DNA from: a phage
DNA: 39,595 nucleotides
Strand: one strand, 5' to 3'
Sequence record: PZ544513.1
Shown in pieces: positions 2,188-28,365 of this stretch. The notes under the pieces are model-generated. The model was not told where the DNA came from, ran no database searches, and saw only the letters and a program-made list of their open reading frames with translations. Numbering within the stretch: position 1 is the first letter of the stretch; each line of letters begins with the position of its first letter. Position numbers and translations under genes: made by a program.

Positions 2188-2437
2188 CGCCGTAATGGTA
2201 ACAATCAACGAAAGTAAGACCTAAGGTCAGTTCATAGCTGACGCTACTCTACTGACCTTAGCTACTGTAGTCAAGGACTTTAGGTAACACCTTAAAAGAA
2301 GCTCACTTAGGGTCATCCTACTTATTGGTCTATCCTAGTGTCGCCTGACCTACGGTCCTTGACCTACAGTAGCTGGTTCCTAAGGAGGGACGATGAGTTT
2401 TTGACCAAAAGTTTGAGACCACATCTCACAGTTCAAG

Positions 2438-2586
2438 AACATCAAGTCTCCCCCATAGGCCTCTTTCAGTCCAGACCAAAGGCCCTACCCCAGTCTATCA
2501 TAAGGTTGGACCGATGGTCAAGACTTCAGGTCAACGATAGGTTGTGGCTATGGCTTAGGGAAGGACGATAGGTTGGGACTATGGGT
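2438..2586. repeat. Direct terminal repeat, copy 1 (right genome end), 149 bp
   Basis: 2438-2586 is identical to 2588-2736 by direct reading (period 150 bp, one spacer base at 2587); T7-like genomes carry direct terminal repeats of about 150-230 bp. Confidence 0.8.
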
Positions 2587-2587
2587 A

Positions 2588-2736
2588 AACATCAAGTCTC
2601 CCCCATAGGCCTCTTTCAGTCCAGACCAAAGGCCCTACCCCAGTCTATCATAAGGTTGGACCGATGGTCAAGACTTCAGGTCAACGATAGGTTGTGGCTA
2701 TGGCTTAGGGAAGGACGATAGGTTGGGACTATGGGT
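2588..2736. repeat. Direct terminal repeat, copy 2 (left genome end), 149 bp
   Basis: Exact tandem copy of 2438-2586; followed by short-repeat array and host-type promoters as at the T7 left end. Confidence 0.8.
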
Positions 2737-2959
2737 CTGTCTTTGAGTCTCTATCTGTATCAGACCTTGAGTCACTACCTACAGTCTAACTACCTACAGT
2801 CATCGACCATCGGTAATGCCGCTACCTACAGTCATCGACCTACGGTTAATAGACACAAGGATATAGACTTAAGGTCTAATACATGTTAGTCAAAGACTAT
2901 ATCCTCTTAGTCACTATGGGGCCGACGATAGCTTAATCAATATTATTTAAGATTACCTA

Positions 2960-2989
2960 TTGACTACAGGTCCAGACTATGGCTTAATA
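2960..2989 (+). promoter_or_regulatory. Putative host sigma70 early promoter (TTGACT, 17 nt spacer, CTTAAT), weak -10
   Basis: -35 TTGACT at 2960-2965 with an AT-rich upstream tract; located between the terminal repeat and the first early gene, like T7 A1-A3. Confidence 0.25.
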
Positions 2990-3100
2990 GCTTCCGTCAA
3001 CACGACACGGCAACAACCGGATAGTGAAGACGCCGGGTCATCCCGGTTAAGTAGACAGCCTGATAAGTCATACGAACAACAGGCAGATGACAGAAAGTAG

Positions 3101-3130
3101 TTGACAAGATGTACCGACTTAAAGTAGTAT
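3101..3130 (+). promoter_or_regulatory. Putative host sigma70 early promoter (TTGACA, 18 nt spacer, TAGTAT)
   Basis: TTGACA 3101-3106, TAGTAT 3125-3130 followed by GTACCACAT, reminiscent of T7 A2/A3 early promoters; correct position and orientation for early transcription. Confidence 0.45.
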
Positions 3131-3243
3131 GTACCACATCAACACGAAACAACGGTGACGACCAACACTGAAACGGTCTACCTGAAGTCCTCTGACTGAA
3201 GGGAATGCTCTTTAACAATCTGGATAAACTCTTAATGTGCGCC

Positions 3244-3310
3244 GACAGTGATTAACTACAGGGTCTTTGAGTCTACATCTGAAGGCCCTGACTGATAGTC
3301 ACTAGCAACC
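3244..3310 (+). other. Putative RNase III processing hairpin, early-region repeat copy A
   Basis: About 66-nt element CGACAGTGATTAACTACAGGGTC...GGCCCTGACTGATAGTCACTA with imperfect inverted symmetry (AGTGA/TCACT and CAGGG/CCCTG stems with internal loop); three copies, each immediately upstream of an early gene. Confidence 0.5.
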
Positions 3311-3324
3311 TAAGAGGATTCATT

Positions 3325-3603
3325 ATGAGACTGAACAAAGCTACAGCAGAAGCCTTTCGCAAGGAGCTTGAATCAAGATTATTGTGTGGAGTGGCGGAAG
3401 GAGCCGCTCGATATAAAGAGAATGGTCTAACGTTCAAGCGCTTTATGTGGGATTGCTATCACGGAGTGGGCCATAAAAAGTCGCAGGAAATAATCACCAG
3501 CAACAATGCGGAAGTGCAAGTGATAGGAGGATACATGGCTAACGTGAAGGATTCACACATAGAGACAATGCTTAAGAATGCACTTAAAGATGTAGCCTAC
3601 TAG
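3325..3603 (+). CDS. Hypothetical early protein (92 aa), first gene behind the host promoters
   Basis: ORF with RBS AAGAGGA 8 nt upstream of ATG; preceded by repeat copy A; no recognisable motif. Confidence 0.6.
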   Translation: MRLNKATAEAFRKELESRLLCGVAEGAARYKENGLTFKRFMWDCYHGVGHKKSQEIITSNNAEVQVIGGYMANVKDSHIETMLKNALKDVAY

Positions 3604-3658
3604 TGATTAACTACAGGTCGTTAGACTGATAGCGGCCTGACTGATAGTCACTAACACA
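3601..3658 (+). other. Putative RNase III processing hairpin, early-region repeat copy B (diverged)
   Basis: TAGTGATTAACTACAGG...CCTGACTGATAGTCACTAACA shares both flanks with copies A and C; immediately upstream of the ocr homolog. Confidence 0.45.
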
Positions 3659-3683
3659 TAATTAACTTTGAGAGGATATAACT

Positions 3684-4190
3684 ATGGAACGTAATGCTAA
3701 CGCATACTATGAGCTGCTGGCTGCAACCGTTGAGGCATTTATCGAGCGTATTCAGTACGACCACCTGACTCAAGATGATGACTACAGCGATGCGCTGCAT
3801 GAGGTCGTAGACGGTCAGGTTCCACACTATTACCACGAGATTTTTACGGTGATGGCTGCTGATGGTATAGACCACGAGTTCGAAGACTCTGGGCTGATGC
3901 CTGAAACCAAGGACGTAACGCGTATCCTACAAGCTCGCATCTATGAGGCGCTTTATAACGATGTGTCTAATAGCTTGGATGTAGTCTGGTTTGAGGATGA
4001 AGAGGCAGAAGAAGAGGATGAATATTGGGTAGTTGACGCTAAAACAGACGCAATAATTGTGCAAGCTGTAGCTCTTGAGGTCGCTACTGCATGTACCAAG
4101 GTTAACTATGCGGCAGGTCGCCACCTGAAGGTGGAAGACATCAATGATAACGTAGTGTTCGACCCTGCGGCTGAGGACTGCGAGCGATGA
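3684..4190 (+). CDS. ocr: Ocr-like DNA-mimic anti-restriction protein (T7 gp0.3 homolog) with a C-terminal extension of about 50 aa
   Basis: Core [43 protein letters not shown] is near-identical to recalled T7 Ocr ([43 protein letters not shown]); acidic; 168 aa versus 117 aa in T7. Confidence 0.88.
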
Positions 4191-4357
4191 TAACTTACGG
4201 TTTATGCCAGCACCACGTCACCAACGCCCGACTTATGGTCAAGACCGGGCGGTTAACCCATGATGAGACTATGCGTCTCCTGAAGGTGGTCTACAAGCGC
4301 CGCAAGCGCATACACGACAGTTTGCACGCTGAGGATAACCAACAATGCTCCAGATAA
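4187..4357 (+). CDS. Hypothetical small basic early protein (56 aa)
   Basis: ATG at 4187 overlaps the ocr stop (ATGA); 56 codons to TAA 4355-4357; under the ORF-track size cutoff. Confidence 0.25.
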
Positions 4358-4422
4358 CTTATAGCAGCGAACAAGCGTTCTACGACGGGTGCTACGAGAT
4401 GATGAAGCGCGATACTTGCTAG

Positions 4423-4488
4423 CGACAGTGATTAACTACAGGGTCTTTGAGTCTACATCTGAAGGCCCTGACTGATAGCCACTAACAA
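4423..4488 (+). other. Putative RNase III processing hairpin, early-region repeat copy C
   Basis: Identical to copy A except 2 positions over 66 nt; immediately upstream of the ORF at 4503. Confidence 0.5.
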
Positions 4489-4502
4489 CTGAGAGGACAG
4501 AT

Positions 4503-4730
4503 ATGAACACAATCACTGGTGCCATAGCCAAAGGTTTTCGAGCAATTTTCAGTGAATCGCAAGAAGTATGCACCAATCATAAATTCGTACTTTCTTGCGT
4601 AGTAGGGGACGAGTTTGACGGATTCGATAAACTGGTGGTTTGCGACCATTGTGGACAAGAGGCTATCCAACGCTCAAACGGTAAATTTGAATTAATAGAC
4701 GATAGCCTTACAGAAGGAGACGGCGAGTAA
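4503..4730 (+). CDS. Hypothetical early protein (75 aa), possible Cys-rich zinc-binding motif
   Basis: ORF with RBS GAGAGGA; contains C-x8-C ... CDHC cysteine pairs; no homolog recognised. Confidence 0.6.
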   Translation: MNTITGAIAKGFRAIFSESQEVCTNHKFVLSCVVGDEFDGFDKLVVCDHCGQEAIQRSNGKFELIDDSLTEGDGE

Positions 4731-4862
4731 CCTAGATAAACAGGAGAGAACCAAATCGTAGCTTGACCATAACGCTGACAGGTGGATACTGAGTGATAGA
4801 CGAGAGGCCGTCGAATGATAGGTGGCCTCAAAGATTATCACTTGAATTAATAGGAGTTAACT

Positions 4863-4952
4863 ATGAGTGTGGGATATTGGGTCTGCCTAGCGCCAGTTAT
4901 CTGGATGATAGGCTATGGGTTATACGACTGTATTAAACGGAAATCACTATGA
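4863..4952 (+). CDS. Hypothetical small membrane peptide (29 aa)
   Basis: ATG 4863 preceded by TAGGAG; hydrophobic WVCLAPVIWMIGYGLY; stop overlaps the next ATG (ATGA at 4949-4952). Confidence 0.3.
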   Translation: MSVGYWVCLAPVIWMIGYGLYDCIKRKSL

Positions 4953-5146
4953 GTATTGCACTATTGATAGCCATAGGCTATGGACTTATCGCATACGTGC
5001 TGGTGAGAGACATCAACAAGGCACGTAAAGTCTATAAATTCAACTATGTACGTATGGTCCGCTGGACTGTACGTCAACCTAACGGACGATTCCTGCGCAA
5101 TTTAGCGAACGTCTGGGATATAGCAACTCTTGGGAGCAAACTGTAA
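4949..5146 (+). CDS. Hypothetical early membrane protein (65 aa)
   Basis: N-terminal hydrophobic segment IALLIAIGYGLIAYVLV followed by basic tail; translationally coupled to neighbours. Confidence 0.55.
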   Translation: MSIALLIAIGYGLIAYVLVRDINKARKVYKFNYVRMVRWTVRQPNGRFLRNLANVWDIATLGSKL

Positions 5147-5472
5147 TGAACAAGTCATACGGGATTAATCTGGTACACTCTATGGACGCAGAAATGAACA
5201 TGTTAAGCCTACTGGCTACCGGGTATCGTCACGGAACGTCAAGTCACACCGCACGTCAACAGCAGGAGAGGGACCGTGTACTACAGGCGCGACTCCGGGC
5301 AGAGGGCCATAAGTCCGAACTGATGTGTCTGGCGTATGGCGGACGACCGATCACTGACGATGGTAAACTTCTGGTATCAGGCTGGAAGGCGATAGACCAA
5401 CGGTCAACCATCAAGCACACGACTCACGGTGACTTCAGCCATCTCCACGCTAACCCACTGATATGCAAGTGA
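5146..5472 (+). CDS. Hypothetical early protein (108 aa); sits where T7 has gene 0.7 but has no kinase motifs
   Basis: ORF starts at TAATG overlap with the previous gene; no recognisable domain. Confidence 0.55.
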   Translation: MNKSYGINLVHSMDAEMNMLSLLATGYRHGTSSHTARQQQERDRVLQARLRAEGHKSELMCLAYGGRPITDDGKLLVSGWKAIDQRSTIKHTTHGDFSHLHANPLICK

Positions 5473-5477
5473 TTATG

Positions 5478-5500
5478 ACTTAACTATCACTATAGGACTC
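5478..5500 (+). promoter_or_regulatory. Phage RNAP promoter-like sequence upstream of the RNA polymerase gene (ACTTAACTATCACTATAGGACTC)
   Basis: Full match to the promoter family core except GGAC instead of GGGA at +1..+4; about 70 bp upstream of gene 1. Confidence 0.5.
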
Positions 5501-5569
5501 AAGGTCTAAGACTCCAAGTGAAAGACCAAAGAGACTTTAAGTGAAAGACTAATAACAAGGACTTTAAGT

Positions 5570-8251
5570 ATGAGCGTCATCTCTATTGACAAACACGACT
5601 TCTCTGATGTGTCGAACGCCATTGAGCCGTTTAACCTGCTGGCTGACCACTACGGGCAAGACCTTGCAGTCAAACAGCTTCAGCTTGAGCATGAGGCCTA
5701 CACTGAAGGTGAGCGACGTTTCATCAAGAACCTTGAGCGTCAGACCGAGCGAGGGGAACTGGCAGACAATCAGGTCGCCAAGCCTTTGATGCAGACTCTG
5801 GTTCCTAAGATTGCGCAAGCCGTCAAGGAGTGGCACGAAGGTCCAGACGGGAAGCTGTCAACCTCACGTCCGAGCGTAGCGTTCACCATGTTAAGCACTG
5901 AAGAGAAGGCCGTCAAGGACCGCTCTCTTCGCATCTCCTGCGAGTCTGCTGCGGTTATCATACTGAAGGTCATCCTCTCCAAGCTGGTCAAGCCTGAAGG
6001 TATACCGATTACACCGATGGCCTCCGCGATAGGTCGCACACTTGAGGATGAAATCCGATTCGGTCGCATTCGTGACAAGGAGAAGGAGCACTTCAAGAAG
6101 GCGATAGCTGATAACCTGAACAAGAGAGCCGGGGCATCATACAAGAAAGCCTACATGCAAGCGGTCGAGACATCCATGCTGGAGCAAGGCCAACTAGAAG
6201 ATGCGTGGGGAACTTGGAGTCCGACCGAGGCTGTCCACGTTGGAATCAAGATGCTGGAGATTGTCATACAGTCAACACAACTGGTCGAGCTTAAGCGTTA
6301 CGGTGCTGGCAATGCAGCGGCTGACGTTGAGATGGTCCACCTGTCAGACTTCTGGGTCAAGAAGATGGCACAACGAGGATTCAGCCTTGCGGGTATCGCC
6401 CCAGTCTACCAGCCTTGCGTCGTTCCGCCTAAGCCGTGGACTGGTGTCGTAGGCGGTGGGTATTGGGCCAAAGGTCGAAGACCATTGCCACTGATTCGCT
6501 TAGGGTCTAAGTCTGCGGTAGCACGTTATGAAGACGTATACATGCCTGAAGTCTATGAAGCTGTGAATATCATCCAGAATACACCTTGGAAAGTGAACAA
6601 GAAGGTATTGGACGTGGTGAACAGGGTCGAGAAGCTGAACAACACGCCTATTAATGACATCCCTCAGATGGAACCGCTGAAGCCTGAGGACTATGCTGGT
6701 GAAACCGAGGAGGAACTCAAGGCATGGAAGAAGGCTGCTGCTGGTATCTATCGCCGCGAGAAGGCCAGACAGTCACGCAGATTATCACTGAGCTTTATCG
6801 TTAACCAAGCAAACAAGTTCTCTCAGTTCAAGGCCATCTGGTTCCCGTACAACATGGATTGGCGAGGTCGTGTCTACGCTGTCCCGATGTTCAACCCTCA
6901 GGGTAACGACATGCAGAAGGGGCTCCTGACTCTGGCAGTCGGCAAGCCTATTGGTGCTGACGGTTTCAAATGGCTGAAGGTCCACGGTGCAAACTGTGCG
7001 GGTGTCGATAAAGTCACCTTCGATGAGCGCATCAAGTGGGTGGAAGACAACCACGAAAACATCATGGCTGCTGCTAAGGCACCGATGGATAGCATTGAGT
7101 GGTGGGGCAAGTTAGACTCTCCGTTCTGCTTCCTAGCGTTCTGCTTCGAGTATGCTGGCGTAATGCACCACGGCTTGTCTTACTCCTGCTCGCTGCCGAT
7201 AGCGTTCGATGGGTCCTGCTCTGGGATTCAGCACTTCAGCGCTATGCTTCGCGACCACATCGGTGGACATGCAGTAAACCTGACGCCATCCGGTAAGGTC
7301 CAAGACATCTACCGCATCGTGTCTGACCGCATTGAGGAGGAGCTTAAAGTCCTACTGGTTAACGGTACGGACAACGAGATGGTAACTCACGAGGACAAGA
7401 AAACTGGTGAGATTACCGAGCGTCTCAAGCTGGGGACACGAGAGCTTGCCCGTCAGTGGCTGACCTACGGTATGTCACGAAAGGTCACTAAGCGTTCGGT
7501 CATGACTCTGGCCTACGGGTCGAAAGAGTACGGCTTCGCAGACCAAGTTTACGAGGACATCGTGATGCCAGCGATTGACTCAGGGTCTGGCGCTATGTTC
7601 ACTGAACCAAGCCAAGCATCTCGCTTCATGGCTAAGATGATTTGGGAAGCTGTGAGTGTGACCGTAGTTGCTGCGGTTGACGCGATGAAATGGCTTCAGG
7701 GTGCTGCCAAGCTGCTTGCTGCTGAAGTGAAGGACAAGAAGACTGGAGAAATCCTGAAGCCTTGTCTTCCGGTACACTGGGTCACACCTGATGGTTTCCC
7801 TGTCTGGCAGGAATACCGAAAGAAGGACACCACTCGTCTGAACCTGATGTTCTTAGGGTCATTCAACCTTCAGCCTACCGTCAACAAAGGCACGAAGAAA
7901 GAGCTGGACAAGCACAAGCAGGAGTCAGGCATTAGCCCGAACTTCGTCCACTCACAAGATGGTAGCCACCTCCGCAAGACTGTAGTCCACACGCACCGCA
8001 AATATGGCGTGATGTCATTCGCAGTGATTCACGATAGCTTCGGGACCATCCCGGCTGACGCTGAGTATCTGTTCCGTGGAGTCCGTGAGACGATGGTCGA
8101 GACCTACCGCGACAACGATGTGCTGCTTGACTTCTACGAGCAGTTTGAATACCAGCTTCACGAGAGCCAGAGAGACAAGTTGCCTGAGCTTCCTAAGAAA
8201 GGTAAACTGAATATCGAAGACATCTTGTCTTCAGACTTTGCATTCGCTTAA
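5570..8251 (+). CDS. 1: Single-subunit DNA-directed RNA polymerase (T7 gp1 family)
   Basis: 893 aa; colinear with T7/T3 RNAP throughout (PMFQPCVVPPKPWTG, FPYNMDWRGRVYAVPMFNPQGNDM, AFCFEYAGV.HHGLSY, DGSCSGIQHFSAMLRD, NFVHSQDGSHLRKTVV, IHDSFGTIPADA, C-terminal DFAFA). Confidence 0.98.
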   Translation: MSVISIDKHDFSDVSNAIEPFNLLADHYGQDLAVKQLQLEHEAYTEGERRFIKNLERQTERGELADNQVAKPLMQTLVPKIAQAVKEWHEGPDGKLSTSRPSVAFTMLSTEEKAVKDRSLRISCESAAVIILKVILSKLVKPEGIPITPMASAIGRTLEDEIRFGRIRDKEKEHFKKAIADNLNKRAGASYKKAYMQAVETSMLEQGQLEDAWGTWSPTEAVHVGIKMLEIVIQSTQLVELKRYGAGNAAADVEMVHLSDFWVKKMAQRGFSLAGIAPVYQPCVVPPKPWTGVVGGGYWAKGRRPLPLIRLGSKSAVARYEDVYMPEVYEAVNIIQNTPWKVNKKVLDVVNRVEKLNNTPINDIPQMEPLKPEDYAGETEEELKAWKKAAAGIYRREKARQSRRLSLSFIVNQANKFSQFKAIWFPYNMDWRGRVYAVPMFNPQGNDMQKGLLTLAVGKPIGADGFKWLKVHGANCAGVDKVTFDERIKWVEDNHENIMAAAKAPMDSIEWWGKLDSPFCFLAFCFEYAGVMHHGLSYSCSLPIAFDGSCSGIQHFSAMLRDHIGGHAVNLTPSGKVQDIYRIVSDRIEEELKVLLVNGTDNEMVTHEDKKTGEITERLKLGTRELARQWLTYGMSRKVTKRSVMTLAYGSKEYGFADQVYEDIVMPAIDSGSGAMFTEPSQASRFMAKMIWEAVSVTVVAAVDAMKWLQGAAKLLAAEVKDKKTGEILKPCLPVHWVTPDGFPVWQEYRKKDTTRLNLMFLGSFNLQPTVNKGTKKELDKHKQESGISPNFVHSQDGSHLRKTVVHTHRKYGVMSFAVIHDSFGTIPADAEYLFRGVRETMVETYRDNDVLLDFYEQFEYQLHESQRDKLPELPKKGKLNIEDILSSDFAFA

Positions 8252-8266
8252 CAACAGGAGAAGTAT

Positions 8267-8497
8267 ATGTCAATGAAACTTGTAGCACACAACAGGGTAT
8301 TCAACGATGGGTCGGGACGTTGCCATGTAGAGCTGACTTATAAGGATTTAATCATTCTCCGAGACAGATTACAGTCGGGTGTGACTGGGTGGATTCAACC
8401 TAACGAGTACAACCTTATAGCTTCGATTGATGAAGTTCTTAACGCGTGGATGGAAGACGAGCGCATTCAGTATCCGTCATTCCCTCTAATTAGATAA
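8267..8497 (+). CDS. Hypothetical protein (76 aa)
   Basis: ORF with RBS GGAGAAG directly after gene 1; no T7 counterpart recognised. Confidence 0.5.
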   Translation: MSMKLVAHNRVFNDGSGRCHVELTYKDLIILRDRLQSGVTGWIQPNEYNLIASIDEVLNAWMEDERIQYPSFPLIR

Positions 8498-8507
8498 GGA
8501 GAGAGTT

Positions 8508-8723
8508 ATGAAATTTGCACACAAGCATACTGGCGTTAATGGTGGGACTCAAATCGTGACCGTAACAGAACACAACGGCAAGGGTCTGGTGAAGACCACG
8601 GTCATCCCTACCGAGATGTCCAAGCAGCTTAACATCCCGTTCAAGACTCTTGTATATCTGGTCGAGTCCAGCCACGAGAAGTACCTGAAGGACGCAGTGT
8701 CCAAGCTGGAGCAGGCCAAATGA
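8508..8723 (+). CDS. Hypothetical protein (71 aa)
   Basis: ORF with RBS AAGGAGAGAG; no T7 counterpart recognised. Confidence 0.5.
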   Translation: MKFAHKHTGVNGGTQIVTVTEHNGKGLVKTTVIPTEMSKQLNIPFKTLVYLVESSHEKYLKDAVSKLEQAK

Positions 8724-8798
8724 CAGACATACAGTTACTGGCCCTGTGGCTGGGAGCACTCGCAGTATTCACTTTAATCCAACGCAGAAGAGGTTAAC

Positions 8799-8821
8799 CC
8801 TAAACTATCACTATAGGCTTA
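8799..8821 (+). promoter_or_regulatory. Phage RNAP promoter (phi1.1-like) CTAAACTATCACTATAGGCTT
   Basis: Member of the conserved promoter family; +1 near 8816. Confidence 0.7.
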
Positions 8822-8860
8822 GACTCAAGGTCATGACTCAAAGTCGTGGCCTTCATGATT
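8821..8860 (+). other. Conserved leader hairpin AGACTCAAGGTCA-loop-TGGCCTT (putative RNase III site, R1.1-like position)
   Basis: 7-bp stem AAGGTCA/TGGCCTT (one G-U pair) with conserved flanks; one of 3 copies at 8821, 16046 and 39024. Confidence 0.45.
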
Positions 8861-8894
8861 AACCCTAAATAAACACTACTGGAGATTTAACCGT

Positions 8895-9074
8895 ATGTAT
8901 CAGAACACTATCAACTTCGAGCGCATCCGTGAACGTCAGCAGACTGAAGGTTACATCCCTAAGGGCCGCAAGCTGAACAAGACTAAACGTGGCGGTGGTA
9001 TCAAAGGCGCTTTCAGAAACGCTGAAGGTAAAGACTCTCTGGTCAACCAAGAGAAATACTTCGTAGGAGCATAA
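8895..9074 (+). CDS. 1.1: gp1.1-like small basic protein (59 aa)
   Basis: ATG 8895 with RBS GGAGA; contains KGRKLNKTKR matching recalled T7 gp1.1; under the ORF-track size cutoff. Confidence 0.55.
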   Translation: MYQNTINFERIRERQQTEGYIPKGRKLNKTKRGGGIKGAFRNAEGKDSLVNQEKYFVGA

Positions 9075-9078
9075 CTCT

Positions 9079-9342
9079 ATGGGCCGACTTTATAGTGGCA
9101 ACATCAACGCTTTCAGAGCAGCGTGTAACAGGCTTTATCAGTTAGACTTCTGCGTGATACAGCAGGACTGGTACGACGCGCATCTTCGGAAAGAGTGCAT
9201 GAGACTTCAAGTCGAGGACCGAGCTGGTAACATCTTCGCGCTTGAGACCTTCGCACACTACGATGAAGACGTGCTGTATAATACCGCAACCGACTACCTC
9301 AACGGTCTCGCTGACCATCTCGACACATGGAGCAAAGAATAA
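9079..9342 (+). CDS. 1.2: Inhibitor of host dGTP triphosphohydrolase (T7 gp1.2 homolog)
   Basis: MGRLYSGNINAFRAA..LYQLDF.VI..DWYDAH.RKEC.RL..EDR.GN ... YDEDVLYN..TDYLN closely tracks recalled T7 gp1.2 (MGRLYSGNLAAFKAA...). Confidence 0.85.
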   Translation: MGRLYSGNINAFRAACNRLYQLDFCVIQQDWYDAHLRKECMRLQVEDRAGNIFALETFAHYDEDVLYNTATDYLNGLADHLDTWSKE

Positions 9343-10430
9343 TGACAACTATCAAAACTAACCCTCACCGCGCTGTAGATTACTCTGAGTCTGGAATTAA
9401 GAAGGCACTGGAAGCAGCCGGGTCTCTGGAAGCTGAAGTGAAGTACGATGGTGTGCGCCTGAACCTCCTGGTACTGCGTGAAGGTGAGACCTACTGGCTT
9501 AGCCGCGAGTCGAAACCTCTACCAGCCTTGGAGTGGATGAACTCTGAGTTAGGTAATGCGTGGACCCAAGCTGACTGGCGATGGTTCCTGCGTCAATCCG
9601 GCTACGAAGGTGTGGGCATGATGATTGATGGCGAGGTCATGGTCAAAGGTGTAGACTTCAACACCTCCTCAGGTCTCATCCGAACGAAGTGGCTCAAGCC
9701 TAACAACGAGGAGTTCGCTGAATACTATTCGCCGGCGACTGGTGGAAAGAAGCTCCCGTTCTGGGGATCCCGGTCACGACTTCAGGTTGTGGTATATGGC
9801 GTTGTCGATATGACAACCATAGCAGACCCGAAAGCAGAAGGTCCTATCCATAGCGTAACCCGCCTGAAGGCTGAAGCTATCGTCCCTCTCCTCCAGAAAT
9901 ACTTCCCGGAAATCGACTGGGTTCTGTCTGAGTCACACACGGTCTATGACCTTGAGTCGCTCAACTCCCTGTACGAACAGAAGCGTCTGGAAGGACATGA
10001 GGGTCTGGTAGTCAAGGACCCACTGGGTAAGTACAAGCGTGGCAAGAAGTCTGGCATGTGGAAAATGAAGCCTGAGGAGACCATCGACGGGACCGTGTGT
10101 GGCCTCGTGTGGGGGACTCCTGGTAAGGCTAACGAAGGTAAGGTCATCGGCTTTGAGGTTCTACTGGAGGATGGCATGGTGGTCAACGCCTGTGGTCTGA
10201 CTGAAGAACAGAAGGACGAGTTTACGGCTAAGGTCAAGGAGGACACGCTTGCTGCGGTTGGCATCTTTGCGCCGTACGGCATTGGTGGTAACGAACCTTG
10301 CTTCGATAACCCATACGAAGGCTGGCAGTGTGAAGTCCTCTTCATGGAGAGGTTCCCTGATGGCTCCCTTCGTCACCCCAGCTTCAAGTGCTGGCGTGGA
10401 ACCGAAGACAACCCAACGGTGAAGTCATGA
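9342..10430 (+). CDS. 1.3: ATP-dependent DNA ligase (T7 gp1.3 homolog)
   Basis: Start MTTIKTNPH aligns with T7 ligase MMNIKTNPF; adenylation motif KYDGVR; EGHEGLVVKDP, KRGKKSGMWKMKPE, SLRHPSF; ATG overlaps the gp1.2 stop (TAATG). Confidence 0.95.
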   Translation: MTTIKTNPHRAVDYSESGIKKALEAAGSLEAEVKYDGVRLNLLVLREGETYWLSRESKPLPALEWMNSELGNAWTQADWRWFLRQSGYEGVGMMIDGEVMVKGVDFNTSSGLIRTKWLKPNNEEFAEYYSPATGGKKLPFWGSRSRLQVVVYGVVDMTTIADPKAEGPIHSVTRLKAEAIVPLLQKYFPEIDWVLSESHTVYDLESLNSLYEQKRLEGHEGLVVKDPLGKYKRGKKSGMWKMKPEETIDGTVCGLVWGTPGKANEGKVIGFEVLLEDGMVVNACGLTEEQKDEFTAKVKEDTLAAVGIFAPYGIGGNEPCFDNPYEGWQCEVLFMERFPDGSLRHPSFKCWRGTEDNPTVKS

Positions 10431-10609: not shown

Positions 10610-10650
10610 CAACCCAGTGGTCTTAGGACTGCTGGGTTTCTTTGCTTCTG
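10610..10650 (+). terminator. Putative early terminator (TE-like) hairpin AACCCAGTGGTC..GACTGCTGGGTT followed by a U-rich tract
   Basis: Stem of about 11 bp followed by TCTTTGCTTCT; position matches the T7 TE terminator after gene 1.3. Confidence 0.4.
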
Positions 10651-10665
10651 GGCCACCAGCTAGAC

Positions 10666-10688
10666 CCTAAGCTATCACTATAGGACAA
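10666..10688 (+). promoter_or_regulatory. Phage RNAP promoter CCTAAGCTATCACTATAGGACAA
   Basis: Promoter family member with one upstream substitution (AAGCT for AAACT). Confidence 0.65.
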
Positions 10689-11381: not shown

Positions 11382-11480
11382 ATGGAAAAGCCGAGTGAGT
11401 GGTGCGAGCGTAAATTTGAGGAGACAGGTAACGTCGATTACCTTCAGCTCTACAACTTATGGAAGGAGCGTGGTCTATGA
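11382..11480 (+). CDS. Hypothetical small protein (32 aa), gene 1.8-like position
   Basis: ATG 11382 after AGAGGTG; stop overlaps the gp2 start (ATGA). Confidence 0.3.
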
Positions 11481-11635
11481 CTGACGTAGAGAAGAAGTAC
11501 ATCGTGGAGCTTGAGGGTCGCATTCAGTCCTTCGAGGTTCCGGTGTACGCAAAGTCTCTTGAAGAGGCTACCCTGAAGTCCCAAGAGTATGAGGACGCTG
11601 GGTTTGTGGTCGGACGGATTCGCCCTGAGACCTAA
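11477..11635 (+). CDS. 2: Inhibitor of host RNA polymerase (T7 gp2 homolog)
   Basis: 52 aa; [14 protein letters not shown]...[11 protein letters not shown] matches recalled T7 gp2 (SFEVPIYAETLDEA...AGFEVTRVRP); RBS GGAAGGAG. Confidence 0.75.
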
Positions 11636-12843: not shown

Positions 12844-13334
12844 TGAGCAAGAAGTTTAAACTGTTAGTAGATGCGCATGGCTGGCCTAGTGGGACTATAG
12901 TTACCAAGTGTGAGAATGACCCCGTACCAGATTCAAGAATGACCCTAGTTGAGTGCCAGACTCCAGGCGCATACAAACATGGGTCTAACGGCTGCAATAC
13001 TCAGCCTGAGGGTATGTGGGGAGCATGGGTCCTTAATTGGAAACTTGAGGAAATCAAGCCGGAAGAGAAACTCACTGGTGTCCAAACCACTCAAGTCCTG
13101 CCAGCTTCGAGCGTACCGCCTGTGACTTTGAAGCGTGAAGTCCTGACCATCGACAAGATTGGTGTAGGCCAGACGTTCATCGTCCATGGAAAGCCTGAAG
13201 AAGTTTACGTGAAGATTAGCAACTCACACGTCTTCAACCATAAGCATCTCCAGATGCACACCACGGACGCACAACGCTTCACCCAGCACCTGAATCTGGT
13301 TGTCGTAGAATTGGTGGTGTACAATGGTAAGTAA
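12843..13334 (+). CDS. Hypothetical accessory protein (163 aa) inserted between endonuclease I and lysozyme
   Basis: ORF with RBS AAAGGAG, start overlapping the gp3 stop and end overlapping the lysozyme start; T7 has no gene at this junction. Confidence 0.6.
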   Translation: MSKKFKLLVDAHGWPSGTIVTKCENDPVPDSRMTLVECQTPGAYKHGSNGCNTQPEGMWGAWVLNWKLEEIKPEEKLTGVQTTQVLPASSVPPVTLKREVLTIDKIGVGQTFIVHGKPEEVYVKISNSHVFNHKHLQMHTTDAQRFTQHLNLVVVELVVYNGK

Positions 13335-13782
13335 GGTACAGTTCAATCCACGGTCCCGGACCGACGCTATCTTCATTCACTGTTCGGCTACCAAGCCAGA
13401 GATGGACATCGGGGTAGAGACCATCCGTATGTGGCACAAGCAGCAAGGCTGGCTGGACGTAGGCTACCACTTTATCATCAAGCGCGATGGTACTGTGGAA
13501 GAGGGACGCCCTGTCAATGTCGTAGGGTCACACGTTAAGGACTGGAACTCACGGTCTGTAGGCGTCTGCCTTGTAGGTGGAATTGACGCTAAGGGCAAGT
13601 TTGAAGCTAACTTCACTCCAGCCCAGATGAACTCCCTGCGCAACAAGCTGGCTGACCTGAAGGACTTGTATCCTCAGGCAGAAATCAAGGCTCACCACGA
13701 TGTAGCACCAAAGGCTTGCCCAAGTTTCGACTTGCAGCGCTGGCTTAACACTAACGAACTGGTCACTTCCGACCGAGGCTAA
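13324..13782 (+). CDS. 3.5: N-acetylmuramoyl-L-alanine amidase / T7 lysozyme (gp3.5 homolog)
   Basis: FIHCSATKP, WLDVGYHFIIKRDGTVEEGR, GVCLVGGIDAKGKFEANFTPAQM, HHDVAPKACPSFDL, C-terminal ELVTSDRG, all colinear with T7 gp3.5. Confidence 0.97.
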   Translation: MVSKVQFNPRSRTDAIFIHCSATKPEMDIGVETIRMWHKQQGWLDVGYHFIIKRDGTVEEGRPVNVVGSHVKDWNSRSVGVCLVGGIDAKGKFEANFTPAQMNSLRNKLADLKDLYPQAEIKAHHDVAPKACPSFDLQRWLNTNELVTSDRG

Positions 13783-13796
13783 TAAGGAGAATTAAC

Positions 13797-14009
13797 ATGA
13801 TTAAACTTATTGAATTTCTGGGTCGTCTGGTTGTGCGTGGCTATTCTCGTGCTGCGAGTGTGGAACGAAAAGTCGCATCTGCTGCGGCTAAAGGTGCGGA
13901 AGCGGCTGCTGCGGAAGCGGATAGTCTGCGCATCAAGTCTCTGGACGCTGGCCTACGTGCCAAAGGTCTTGACAAGAAAGCCGAGCAACTGAAAGGCTTC
14001 TTCAGCTAA
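13797..14009 (+). CDS. Hypothetical protein (70 aa), Ala/Lys-rich with hydrophobic N-terminus
   Basis: ORF with RBS AAGGAGA 7 nt upstream. Confidence 0.5.
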   Translation: MIKLIEFLGRLVVRGYSRAASVERKVASAAAKGAEAAAAEADSLRIKSLDAGLRAKGLDKKAEQLKGFFS

Positions 14010-14027
14010 ACTATCACCTTAGGGATG
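14005..14027 (+). promoter_or_regulatory. Phage RNAP promoter variant GCTAAACTATCACCTTAGGGATG
   Basis: Promoter family member with two substitutions in the -4/-2 region (CACCTTAGGGA). Confidence 0.5.
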
Positions 14028-14163: not shown

Positions 14164-16043
<1,880 letters not shown>

Positions 16044-16045
16044 GT

Positions 16046-16090
16046 CTAGACTCAAGGTCATTCATAGCGAGTGGCCTTTATGATTAGACT
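16046..16090 (+). other. Conserved leader hairpin AGACTCAAGGTCA-loop-TGGCCTT (putative RNase III site, R4.7-like position)
   Basis: Second copy of the hairpin family; immediately upstream of the DNA polymerase gene. Confidence 0.45.
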
Positions 16091-24997: not shown

Positions 24998-25001
24998 TTG
25001 A

Positions 25002-25043
25002 AACCCCTTGGGTGCCTTCGGGTGCTTGAGGGGTTTTTTTTGC
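25002..25043 (+). terminator. T-phi-like intrinsic terminator for phage RNAP
   Basis: AACCCCTTGGGTGCCTTCGGGTGCTTGAGGGGTTTTTTTTG: G/C-rich hairpin plus U-run, closely resembling T7 T-phi (AACCCCTTGGGGCCTCTAAACGGGTCTTGAGGGGTTTTTTG) at the same position after the capsid gene. Confidence 0.9.
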
Positions 25044-28342: not shown

Positions 28343-28365
28343 CCTTAACTATCACTATAGGGACT
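28343..28365 (+). promoter_or_regulatory. Phage RNAP promoter (phi13-like) CCTTAACTATCACTATAGGGACT embedded in a 12-bp perfect inverted repeat
   Basis: Promoter family member; flanked by AAGGGCCTATAG (28326-28337) and CTATAGGCCCTT (28364-28375). Confidence 0.7.

Follow-up and report, generated by a model that had tools for sequence, protein, structure and literature searches.

A probable promoter for the phage RNA polymerase directly upstream of the polymerase gene in a K1F-like coliphage

Phage promoters located before the gene of their own RNA polymerase (RNAP) are already known as an arrangement from the phages LUZ100, phiA318 and CR8. In the Pseudomonas phage LUZ100, ONT-cappable-seq mapped a phage-specific start, phi1, immediately before the RNAP gene; the model proposed there is one of positive feedback, bootstrapped by host-RNAP read-through (PMC10134795). 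LUZ100 is a distant, temperate-like phage for whose loop gating by a MarR-type repressor has been proposed, and its start was mapped experimentally, whereas the phage described here has no lysogeny module and its start is predicted from the sequence. In the Vibrio phage phiA318, autoregulation was proposed from the predicted promoter phi-A8 (PMC4099482), which differs from the present case in preceding a kinase gene as well as the RNAP gene, in being a prediction only and in belonging to a distant lineage. The Citrobacter phage CR8 (Caroctavirus) presents a depositor-annotated predicted promoter at 3356-3378 (GenBank HG818824), in the homologous position and with an exact match to the CR8 consensus, although its specificity sequence is another one (AAGGAAGGTACACTATAGG), 87 nt separate its +1 from the annotated gene 1 ATG, versus 75 nt here, and its leader contains different hairpins. 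Within the genus Kayfunavirus, a 2026 paper gives eight CTWAACTATCACTATAGG repeats as promoters, one of which stands at the 3' end of SPD_007; to judge from the locus tags, this should be the gene just before SPD_008, which encodes the RNAP (PMC13298934). The GenBank and RefSeq records of the type phage K1F, whose site is identical to the one described here, carry no annotated promoter features, and a literature search found no transcriptome, 5'-end or in vitro transcription data for Kayfunavirus or K1F.

The arrangement also has an engineered counterpart. In the T7 autogene, reportedly described by Dubendorff and Studier in 1991, gene 1 is placed under a T7 promoter, and in engineered T7 systems such a construct is said to be highly toxic when unchecked. 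Its polymerase transcribes its own gene from the cognate promoter, as is predicted here, but it is synthetic and tolerated only with lac repression or lysozyme, whereas the circuit considered here would be natural and would operate within a lytic cycle of a few minutes. The engineered concept has been used in PMC6395690. In T7 itself the first strong phage promoters come after gene 1, and the place directly before it is occupied by the E. coli promoter C and by R1, with no phage promoter there. The preliminary description of this locus had contrasted it with T7, where gene 1 would be transcribed only by host RNAP and followed by the first phage promoter. It is right that no phage promoter directly precedes T7 gene 1, but the contrast was slightly overstated, as phiOL (NC_001604), at nt 405, precedes the whole early region; it too is upstream of gene 1, but at the genome end, about 2.8 kb away. 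Another likeness in T7 is the phi1.1A/R1.1 cassette (NC_001604), in which a class II-type promoter is followed by a ACTCAAGGTC-type leader.

The stretch of DNA analysed here, called the window (record PZ544513.1, 39,595 nucleotides), is a complete K1F-like coliphage genome of 39.6 kb (Kayfunavirus, Studiervirinae), of which positions 4900-8300 match several Escherichia phage records at 99.9-100% identity and LM33_P1 at 96%. The sequence is rotated, with its opening letters inside the large terminase gene (1-1731). Two tandem 149-nt copies, 100% identical and spaced 150 nt (2438-2586 and 2588-2736), most likely represent the two direct terminal repeats, left and right, in a head-to-tail junction, which would make the window a rotated or concatemer-style version of the linear genome. 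Across the concatemer junction, the phiOR-like promoter would also read toward the early region. The latter includes an ocr homologue (3684-4190) and several small ORFs, and the 0.7 kinase is absent from it. The RNAP encoded by gene 1 is 99.2% identical to K1F gp1 and 63.9% identical to T7 RNAP, and its specificity loop, TRLNLMFLGSFNLQP, is of the K1F type. The features of the locus are collected in Table 1.

Table 1. Features of the window that bear on the transcription of gene 1
Feature	Coordinates	Strand	Details
phiOR-like phage promoter	1826-1848	+	3' of the terminase gene; +1 at 1843; family member
Candidate host sigma-70 early promoter	3101-3130	+	TTGACA-18-TAGTAT; 10/12 consensus match only
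Upstream early ORF	5146-5472	+	108 aa; phrog_7066, function unknown; stop codon 6 nt before promoter -17
Predicted phage-RNAP promoter (-17 to +6)	5478-5500	+	predicted start G5495; sequence ACTTAACTATCACTATAGGACTC
Candidate interrupted hairpin	5484-5547	+	about 21 bp; -17.4 kcal/mol, z -2.56; forms only in RNA read through from upstream
Predicted leader of phage-initiated gene 1 mRNA	5495-5569	+	75 nt
Direct repeat AAGTGAAAGAC, copy 1	5516-5526	+	supplies the 3' side of the upper stem of the candidate hairpin
Direct repeat GACTTTAAGT, copy 1	5533-5542	+	
Direct repeat AAGTGAAAGAC, copy 2	5539-5549	+	its AGTGA pairs with promoter TCACT in read-through RNA
Direct repeat GACTTTAAGT, copy 2	5560-5569	+	from the GA ending the Shine-Dalgarno AAGGA (5557-5561) to the base before ATG
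Gene 1, single-subunit RNA polymerase	5570-8251	+	893 aa; phrog_414, E = 0
Next phage promoter, after gene 1	8799-8821	+	+1 at 8816; equivalent to T7 phi1.1A
Hairpin after the promoter that follows gene 1	8823-8866	+	homologous to the T7 R1.1 RNase III site; z -3.1
TE-like intrinsic terminator	10611-10638	+	12-bp stem and T-rich tail; -24.3 kcal/mol, z -2.7
gp2-like inhibitor of host RNA polymerase	11459-11635	+	phrog_1307, E 5e-24
gp3.5-like amidase/lysozyme	13324-13782	+	phrog_822, E 2e-80

The site before gene 1 belongs to a family of ten phage promoters, all on the + strand and co-oriented at gene boundaries of a genome that encodes the cognate RNAP. Their consensus is (A/C)CT(A/T)AACTATCACTATAGG or, with the start included, (A/C)CT(A/T)AACTATCACTATA followed by GG. 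Alignment with the T7 convention of -17 to +6 sets +1 at G5495, so that the site reads ACTTAACTATCACTATA up to the start and GGACTC from it. It contains the exact core TCACTATAGG, for which 13 occurrences with at most one mismatch were counted in the window, against 2.4 expected from shuffles. When scored with a weight matrix built from the other nine sites (leave-one-out), it reaches 31.4 bits, while family members range from 31 to 38 bits in one count and from 27 to 36 bits in another, and the best non-member scores 20.6 bits. This confirms the full promoter-family sequence announced in the preliminary description, as well as its location directly upstream of gene 1, given there as about 70 bp and found to be 75 nt from +1 to the ATG. 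The GGAC start that had been pointed out, in place of GGGA, is present but is no special feature, because two further promoters of this genome, starting at 10683 and 11648, have it too. Since the initially transcribed sequence GGACTC is non-consensus, the promoter is class II-like. The same departure from the optimal GGGAGA start could be taken to mean that the sequence is silent or arose by chance and has no function. This is extremely improbable, as zero chance matches are expected for the 23-mer, other promoters of the genome likewise begin with GGAC, and the site is both perfectly conserved and co-varying across lineages of different polymerase specificity.

Regarding conservation, the 23-mer is identical, and at the same place, in K1F and LM33_P1, as well as in 15 loci from IMG/VR, and phage GW1 also has a promoter at the gene 1 position. 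When IMG/VR was scanned with the RNAP, 80 loci were retrieved. The promoter was present in all those with an RNAP identity of at least 79% and an intact upstream region (21/21), with its +1 falling 75-102 nt before the start of the RNAP match. Among the T7-, T3- and K11/KP32-like loci, with RNAP identities of 58-64%, none of 58 had it within 400 nt of gene 1, and a de novo repeat check with each phage's own motif, carried out in 12 of those 58, likewise revealed no promoter there. In the alignment of the K1F-type group the 23-mer is invariant, and scattered substitutions are seen in the preceding coding sequence.

The site also changes when the polymerase does. In Kayfunavirus members of the L018/L042/GW1-like type (RNAP 88% identical for L018 and L042), all promoters carry AAACCCTCACTATAGG, and the gene 1 site of the GW1-like phages reads ATTAAACCCTCACTATA followed by GGACTC (AACCCTCACTATAGG), with flanks otherwise as in K1F. 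Their specificity loop, TRLDLMFLGTFRLQP, presents the T3-like change N748D, matching the T3-like ACCC at -12 to -9. In CR8, with 79% RNAP identity, the lineage-specific sequence appears at every promoter, the gene 1 site included, and the loop reads TRIKLMFMG-VQYRP. From -12 to -8, ACTAT thus goes with N748/N756 in the K1F type, ACCCT with D748/R756 in the GW1 type and AGGTA with a different loop in CR8, and in all three the gene 1 site follows the specificity of its own lineage. A site that is rewritten whenever the specificity of the polymerase changes is presumably read by that polymerase, which argues for the use of 5478-5500 by the phage enzyme. We thus consider it probable that the single-subunit RNAP of the phage initiates transcription from this promoter, which would make gene 1 a natural autogene. 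The invariance in K1F-type relatives and the change in step with the specificity loop argue for activity, and in this way lend support to the earlier proposal that the promoter, if active, would create positive autoregulation.

To place the arrangement in the family, six more distant Autographiviridae were sampled from GenBank and the promoter motif of each was found de novo. In five of the six, a full cognate promoter lies about 90-155 nt upstream of the RNAP gene: Aeromonas phage PZL-Ah152, the Ghunavirus phages PCMW57 and MR2, Pifdecavirus IPa-1 and the Ralstonia Serkorvirus 10RS305A, which has two. The sixth, an Erwinia Ningirsuvirus, has no such promoter before its RNAP gene. In all, 2,688 phage records contain a homologue of the RNAP. 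The T7 layout, with gene 1 transcribed by host RNAP only, would then be a trait of the T7/T3/K11 clade and not of the family, which corrects a T7-centred assumption. The presence of a promoter before gene 1 is less remarkable than the preliminary description implied, because it is common in the family outside that clade.

The most likely mechanism would be positive feedback on gene 1 after bootstrapping by host RNAP, and the parts of such a circuit are present in the genome: a candidate host promoter, a TE-like terminator, gp2 and gp3.5. After DNA entry, host RNAP would start at early sigma-70 promoters, among which the candidate of Table 1, which precedes the first early ORF by about 195 bp, is the presumed route to the first gene 1 mRNA. 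It would then transcribe the early genes, through gene 1, up to the TE-like terminator, which follows the ligase gene, in the same position as T7 TE, and is a candidate for the end of the host-RNAP early unit, gene 1 included. No terminator-like site was found on the + strand in 2400-9400, hence none between the early region and gene 1. With a sigma-70 consensus match upstream, and with the ligase gene passed before any TE-like terminator is reached, host RNAP could make the first gene 1 mRNA. The first polymerase molecules would recognise 5478-5500 and initiate at G5495, producing an mRNA composed of the 75-nt leader and gene 1. Polymerase synthesis would in this way self-amplify, and it would be independent of host RNAP once the gp2-like protein inhibits the host enzyme and shuts off the host route to gene 1 mRNA.

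A point against such a loop is the high toxicity of unchecked autogenes in T7 expression constructs, so that it must be limited by some further factor. In T7, gp3.5 is an inhibitor that binds the phage RNAP and acts preferentially at class II promoters. By analogy, the gp3.5-like amidase/lysozyme of this phage is the likely brake, and since the non-consensus start GGACTC marks a class II-type promoter, it would probably damp the loop later in infection, as T7 gp3.5 does with the class II promoters of T7.

Feedback on the polymerase may not be what the promoter is selected for, however, because a functional promoter at this place also drives genes 1.1 onward. The promoter could be active and yet be selected as the first entry point for phage RNAP, providing fast transcription and transcription-coupled internalisation of the genome from gene 1, and maybe replication priming like that of T7 phi1.1A/B, with extra polymerase as a by-product. 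Since there is no phage-type terminator before 25000-25037, transcripts from 5495 would run into genes 1.1-1.3 and beyond. Moreover, T7 has two tandem promoters after gene 1, where this phage has one after and one before, and the leader of gene 1 is, in its 5' part, paralogous to the phi1.1/R1.1-type cassette. All this would fit an entry point, but the promoter just after gene 1 would already serve the downstream genes, so what the one before it adds to the phage-RNAP regulon is gene 1 alone, and the position beside gene 1 is kept in very different genera. We therefore regard this alternative as unlikely, and positive feedback as the preferred reading.

The predicted leader contains two direct repeats, present as the preliminary description claimed. 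They are rarer than expected by chance: when the 75-nt leader is shuffled, 0.24% of the shuffles contain an 11-nt repeat and 0.08% contain two repeats of at least 10 nt. Comparable repeats occur in only a handful of places elsewhere in the genome. Two other leaders of the genome provide matches: positions +3 to +25 (ACTCAAGGTCTAAGACTCCAAGT) are identical at 20 of 23 positions to the start of the leader of the promoter after gene 1 (z 6.0), and the 3' half is similar to the leader behind the promoter whose +1 is at 28360 (z 4.4). Because of these matches, the repeats can be described as assembled from stock motifs of the phage-promoter leaders of this genome. According to the leader alignment, neither the L012 subgroup of Kayfunavirus nor CR8 keeps them as repeats. 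What is invariant, in all Kayfunavirus loci aligned, is AAGGACTTTAAGTATG, which comprises the Shine-Dalgarno sequence, an 8-nt spacer and the ATG. The reading of GGACTTTAAGTATG as the T7 gene 1 ribosome-binding site turned out to be wrong, as T7 reads ...GGAAGAGGCACTAAATG. Folded from +1, the leader is no more stable than its shuffles (z -0.28 and 0.12), and a search of Rfam gave no family match, with only a sub-threshold chance match to a snoRNA. The sequence ACTCAAGGTC also occurs on the + strand at 16050 and 39028.

RNA that is read through from upstream can be predicted to fold differently. In it, promoter positions -11 to +3 form the lower 5' arm of the candidate hairpin at 5484-5547, which may be an analogue of the T7 RNase III site R1, a site that lies at the equivalent place in T7. 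The hairpin is kept in three Kayfunavirus lineages and has no match in Rfam. In the L012 subgroup, a T>A change at -2 together with a 1-nt change in the 3' arm turns the lower stem into a perfect 10-bp helix (AUCACUAAAG/CUUUAGUGAU). That subgroup consists of L012 (site at 2400-2422), L013, L014, L020 and L021, with RNAPs 93-94% identical; the -2 change (CACTAAAGG) affects the gene 1 promoter only, and the leader is remodelled to 81 nt. The change may reflect an attenuated promoter or relaxed constraint, a strengthened RNA helix, or both.

As the promoter also forms the 5' arm of this hairpin, the conservation of -11 to +3 is possibly due to RNA structure. The sequence might even be conserved mainly as RNA, as the 5' arm of an R1-like RNase III hairpin in host-made early transcripts, its likeness to a promoter being secondary. 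The folding score, the retention of the hairpin in three lineages, the perfect helix of the L012 subgroup and the R1 site of T7, whose hairpin was folded as well, would agree with this, but positions -17 to -12 lie outside the hairpin and are nonetheless conserved and switch with RNAP specificity. In addition, the promoter is retained in CR8 but takes no part in a hairpin there, and RNAalifold, run on 10 distinct sequences, found zero double compensatory pairs in a set of too low diversity and with the 3' arm of the L012 type out of register. This makes a mainly RNA-level role very unlikely. The R1 sequence conserved among the T7, T3 and K11 groups is absent from the window, and the likeness of the hairpin region to R1.1 is limited to the ACTCAAGGTC arm; the hairpin at 8823-8866 is the one with sequence homology to T7 R1.1 (ACTCAAGGTCA...GTGGCCTTCATGATTAACC).

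A promoter role and an RNA-hairpin role are compatible and not mutually exclusive. The retention of the hairpin in three lineages and the 10-bp helix of the L012 subgroup suggest an R1-like processing site overlapping the promoter. According to this tentative and rather doubtful model, the promoter would double as the 5' arm of the processing hairpin: host-made read-through RNA would be processed, and phage RNA starting at 5495, which lacks the lower stem, would escape. Early and middle gene 1 mRNAs would then differ in processing or stability, and the -2 T>A change would reflect selection for the RNA helix against promoter strength. A related idea of differential translation, in which the phage-initiated leader hides the ribosome-binding site and read-through RNA exposes it, was rejected, as ensemble unpaired probabilities in 10 relatives gave no consistent difference and the direction was reversed in L018 and L042.

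With positive feedback on gene 1 as the preferred reading, the polymerase supply of Kayfunavirus is predicted to be independent of host RNAP after the first minutes of infection. This bears on the effect that gp2-type shut-off, and host defences acting on early transcription, would have on phages that are candidates for therapy. K1F-type RNAP/promoter pairs serve as orthogonal parts in synthetic biology, so a natural and tolerated autogene, together with its leader, could be a template for self-amplifying expression modules. The co-variation between promoter and RNAP specificity represents a cheap and strong type of evidence for promoter function, and it can be applied throughout the family.

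Several other promoter-like sequences and repeats were observed. About 30 nt upstream of gene 1 in the T7-like loci L030, L039 and L040 lies ATACGATTTACTA, which is nearly the same in T7 (L003, 3141-3153) and departs from the T7 promoter segment ATACGACTCACTA at two positions; a decayed promoter relic or a chance match (rough expectation about 0.01) could account for it. In the window, a degenerate promoter-like sequence at 2903-2925 (TCCTCTTAGTCACTATGGGGCCG) is found between the terminal repeat and the early sigma-70 candidates, in the position equivalent to T7 phiOL. It was rejected as the phiOL equivalent, with mismatches at all of -12 to -9 and a score far below those of the family members. 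A sub-threshold promoter-like site, GCTAAACTATCACCTTAGGGATG, with a score of 20.6 bits, is found at 14005-14027, upstream of the primase/helicase gene. At the equivalent place relatives have CTTAAACACTCACTAAAGGGATG (L013, about 14543-14565; L018, about 14220-14242; L042, about 14170-14192), which is kept whatever the RNAP specificity class, so that, unlike the other sites, this one shows no co-variation. Between the terminase stop codon and the phiOR-like promoter there is a strong hairpin at 1741-1789 (RNA fold -21.8 kcal/mol, z -4.5), whose 11-bp arms, TAACTATAGG and CCTATAGTTA, are similar to the promoter core. Finally, short repeat families near the genome end, at 2790-2846 and 2534-2738 (CTACCTACAGTCATCGACC, at least twice, and ACGATAGGTTGTGGCTATGG, four times), are similar to the end-proximal repeat arrays annotated in CR8.
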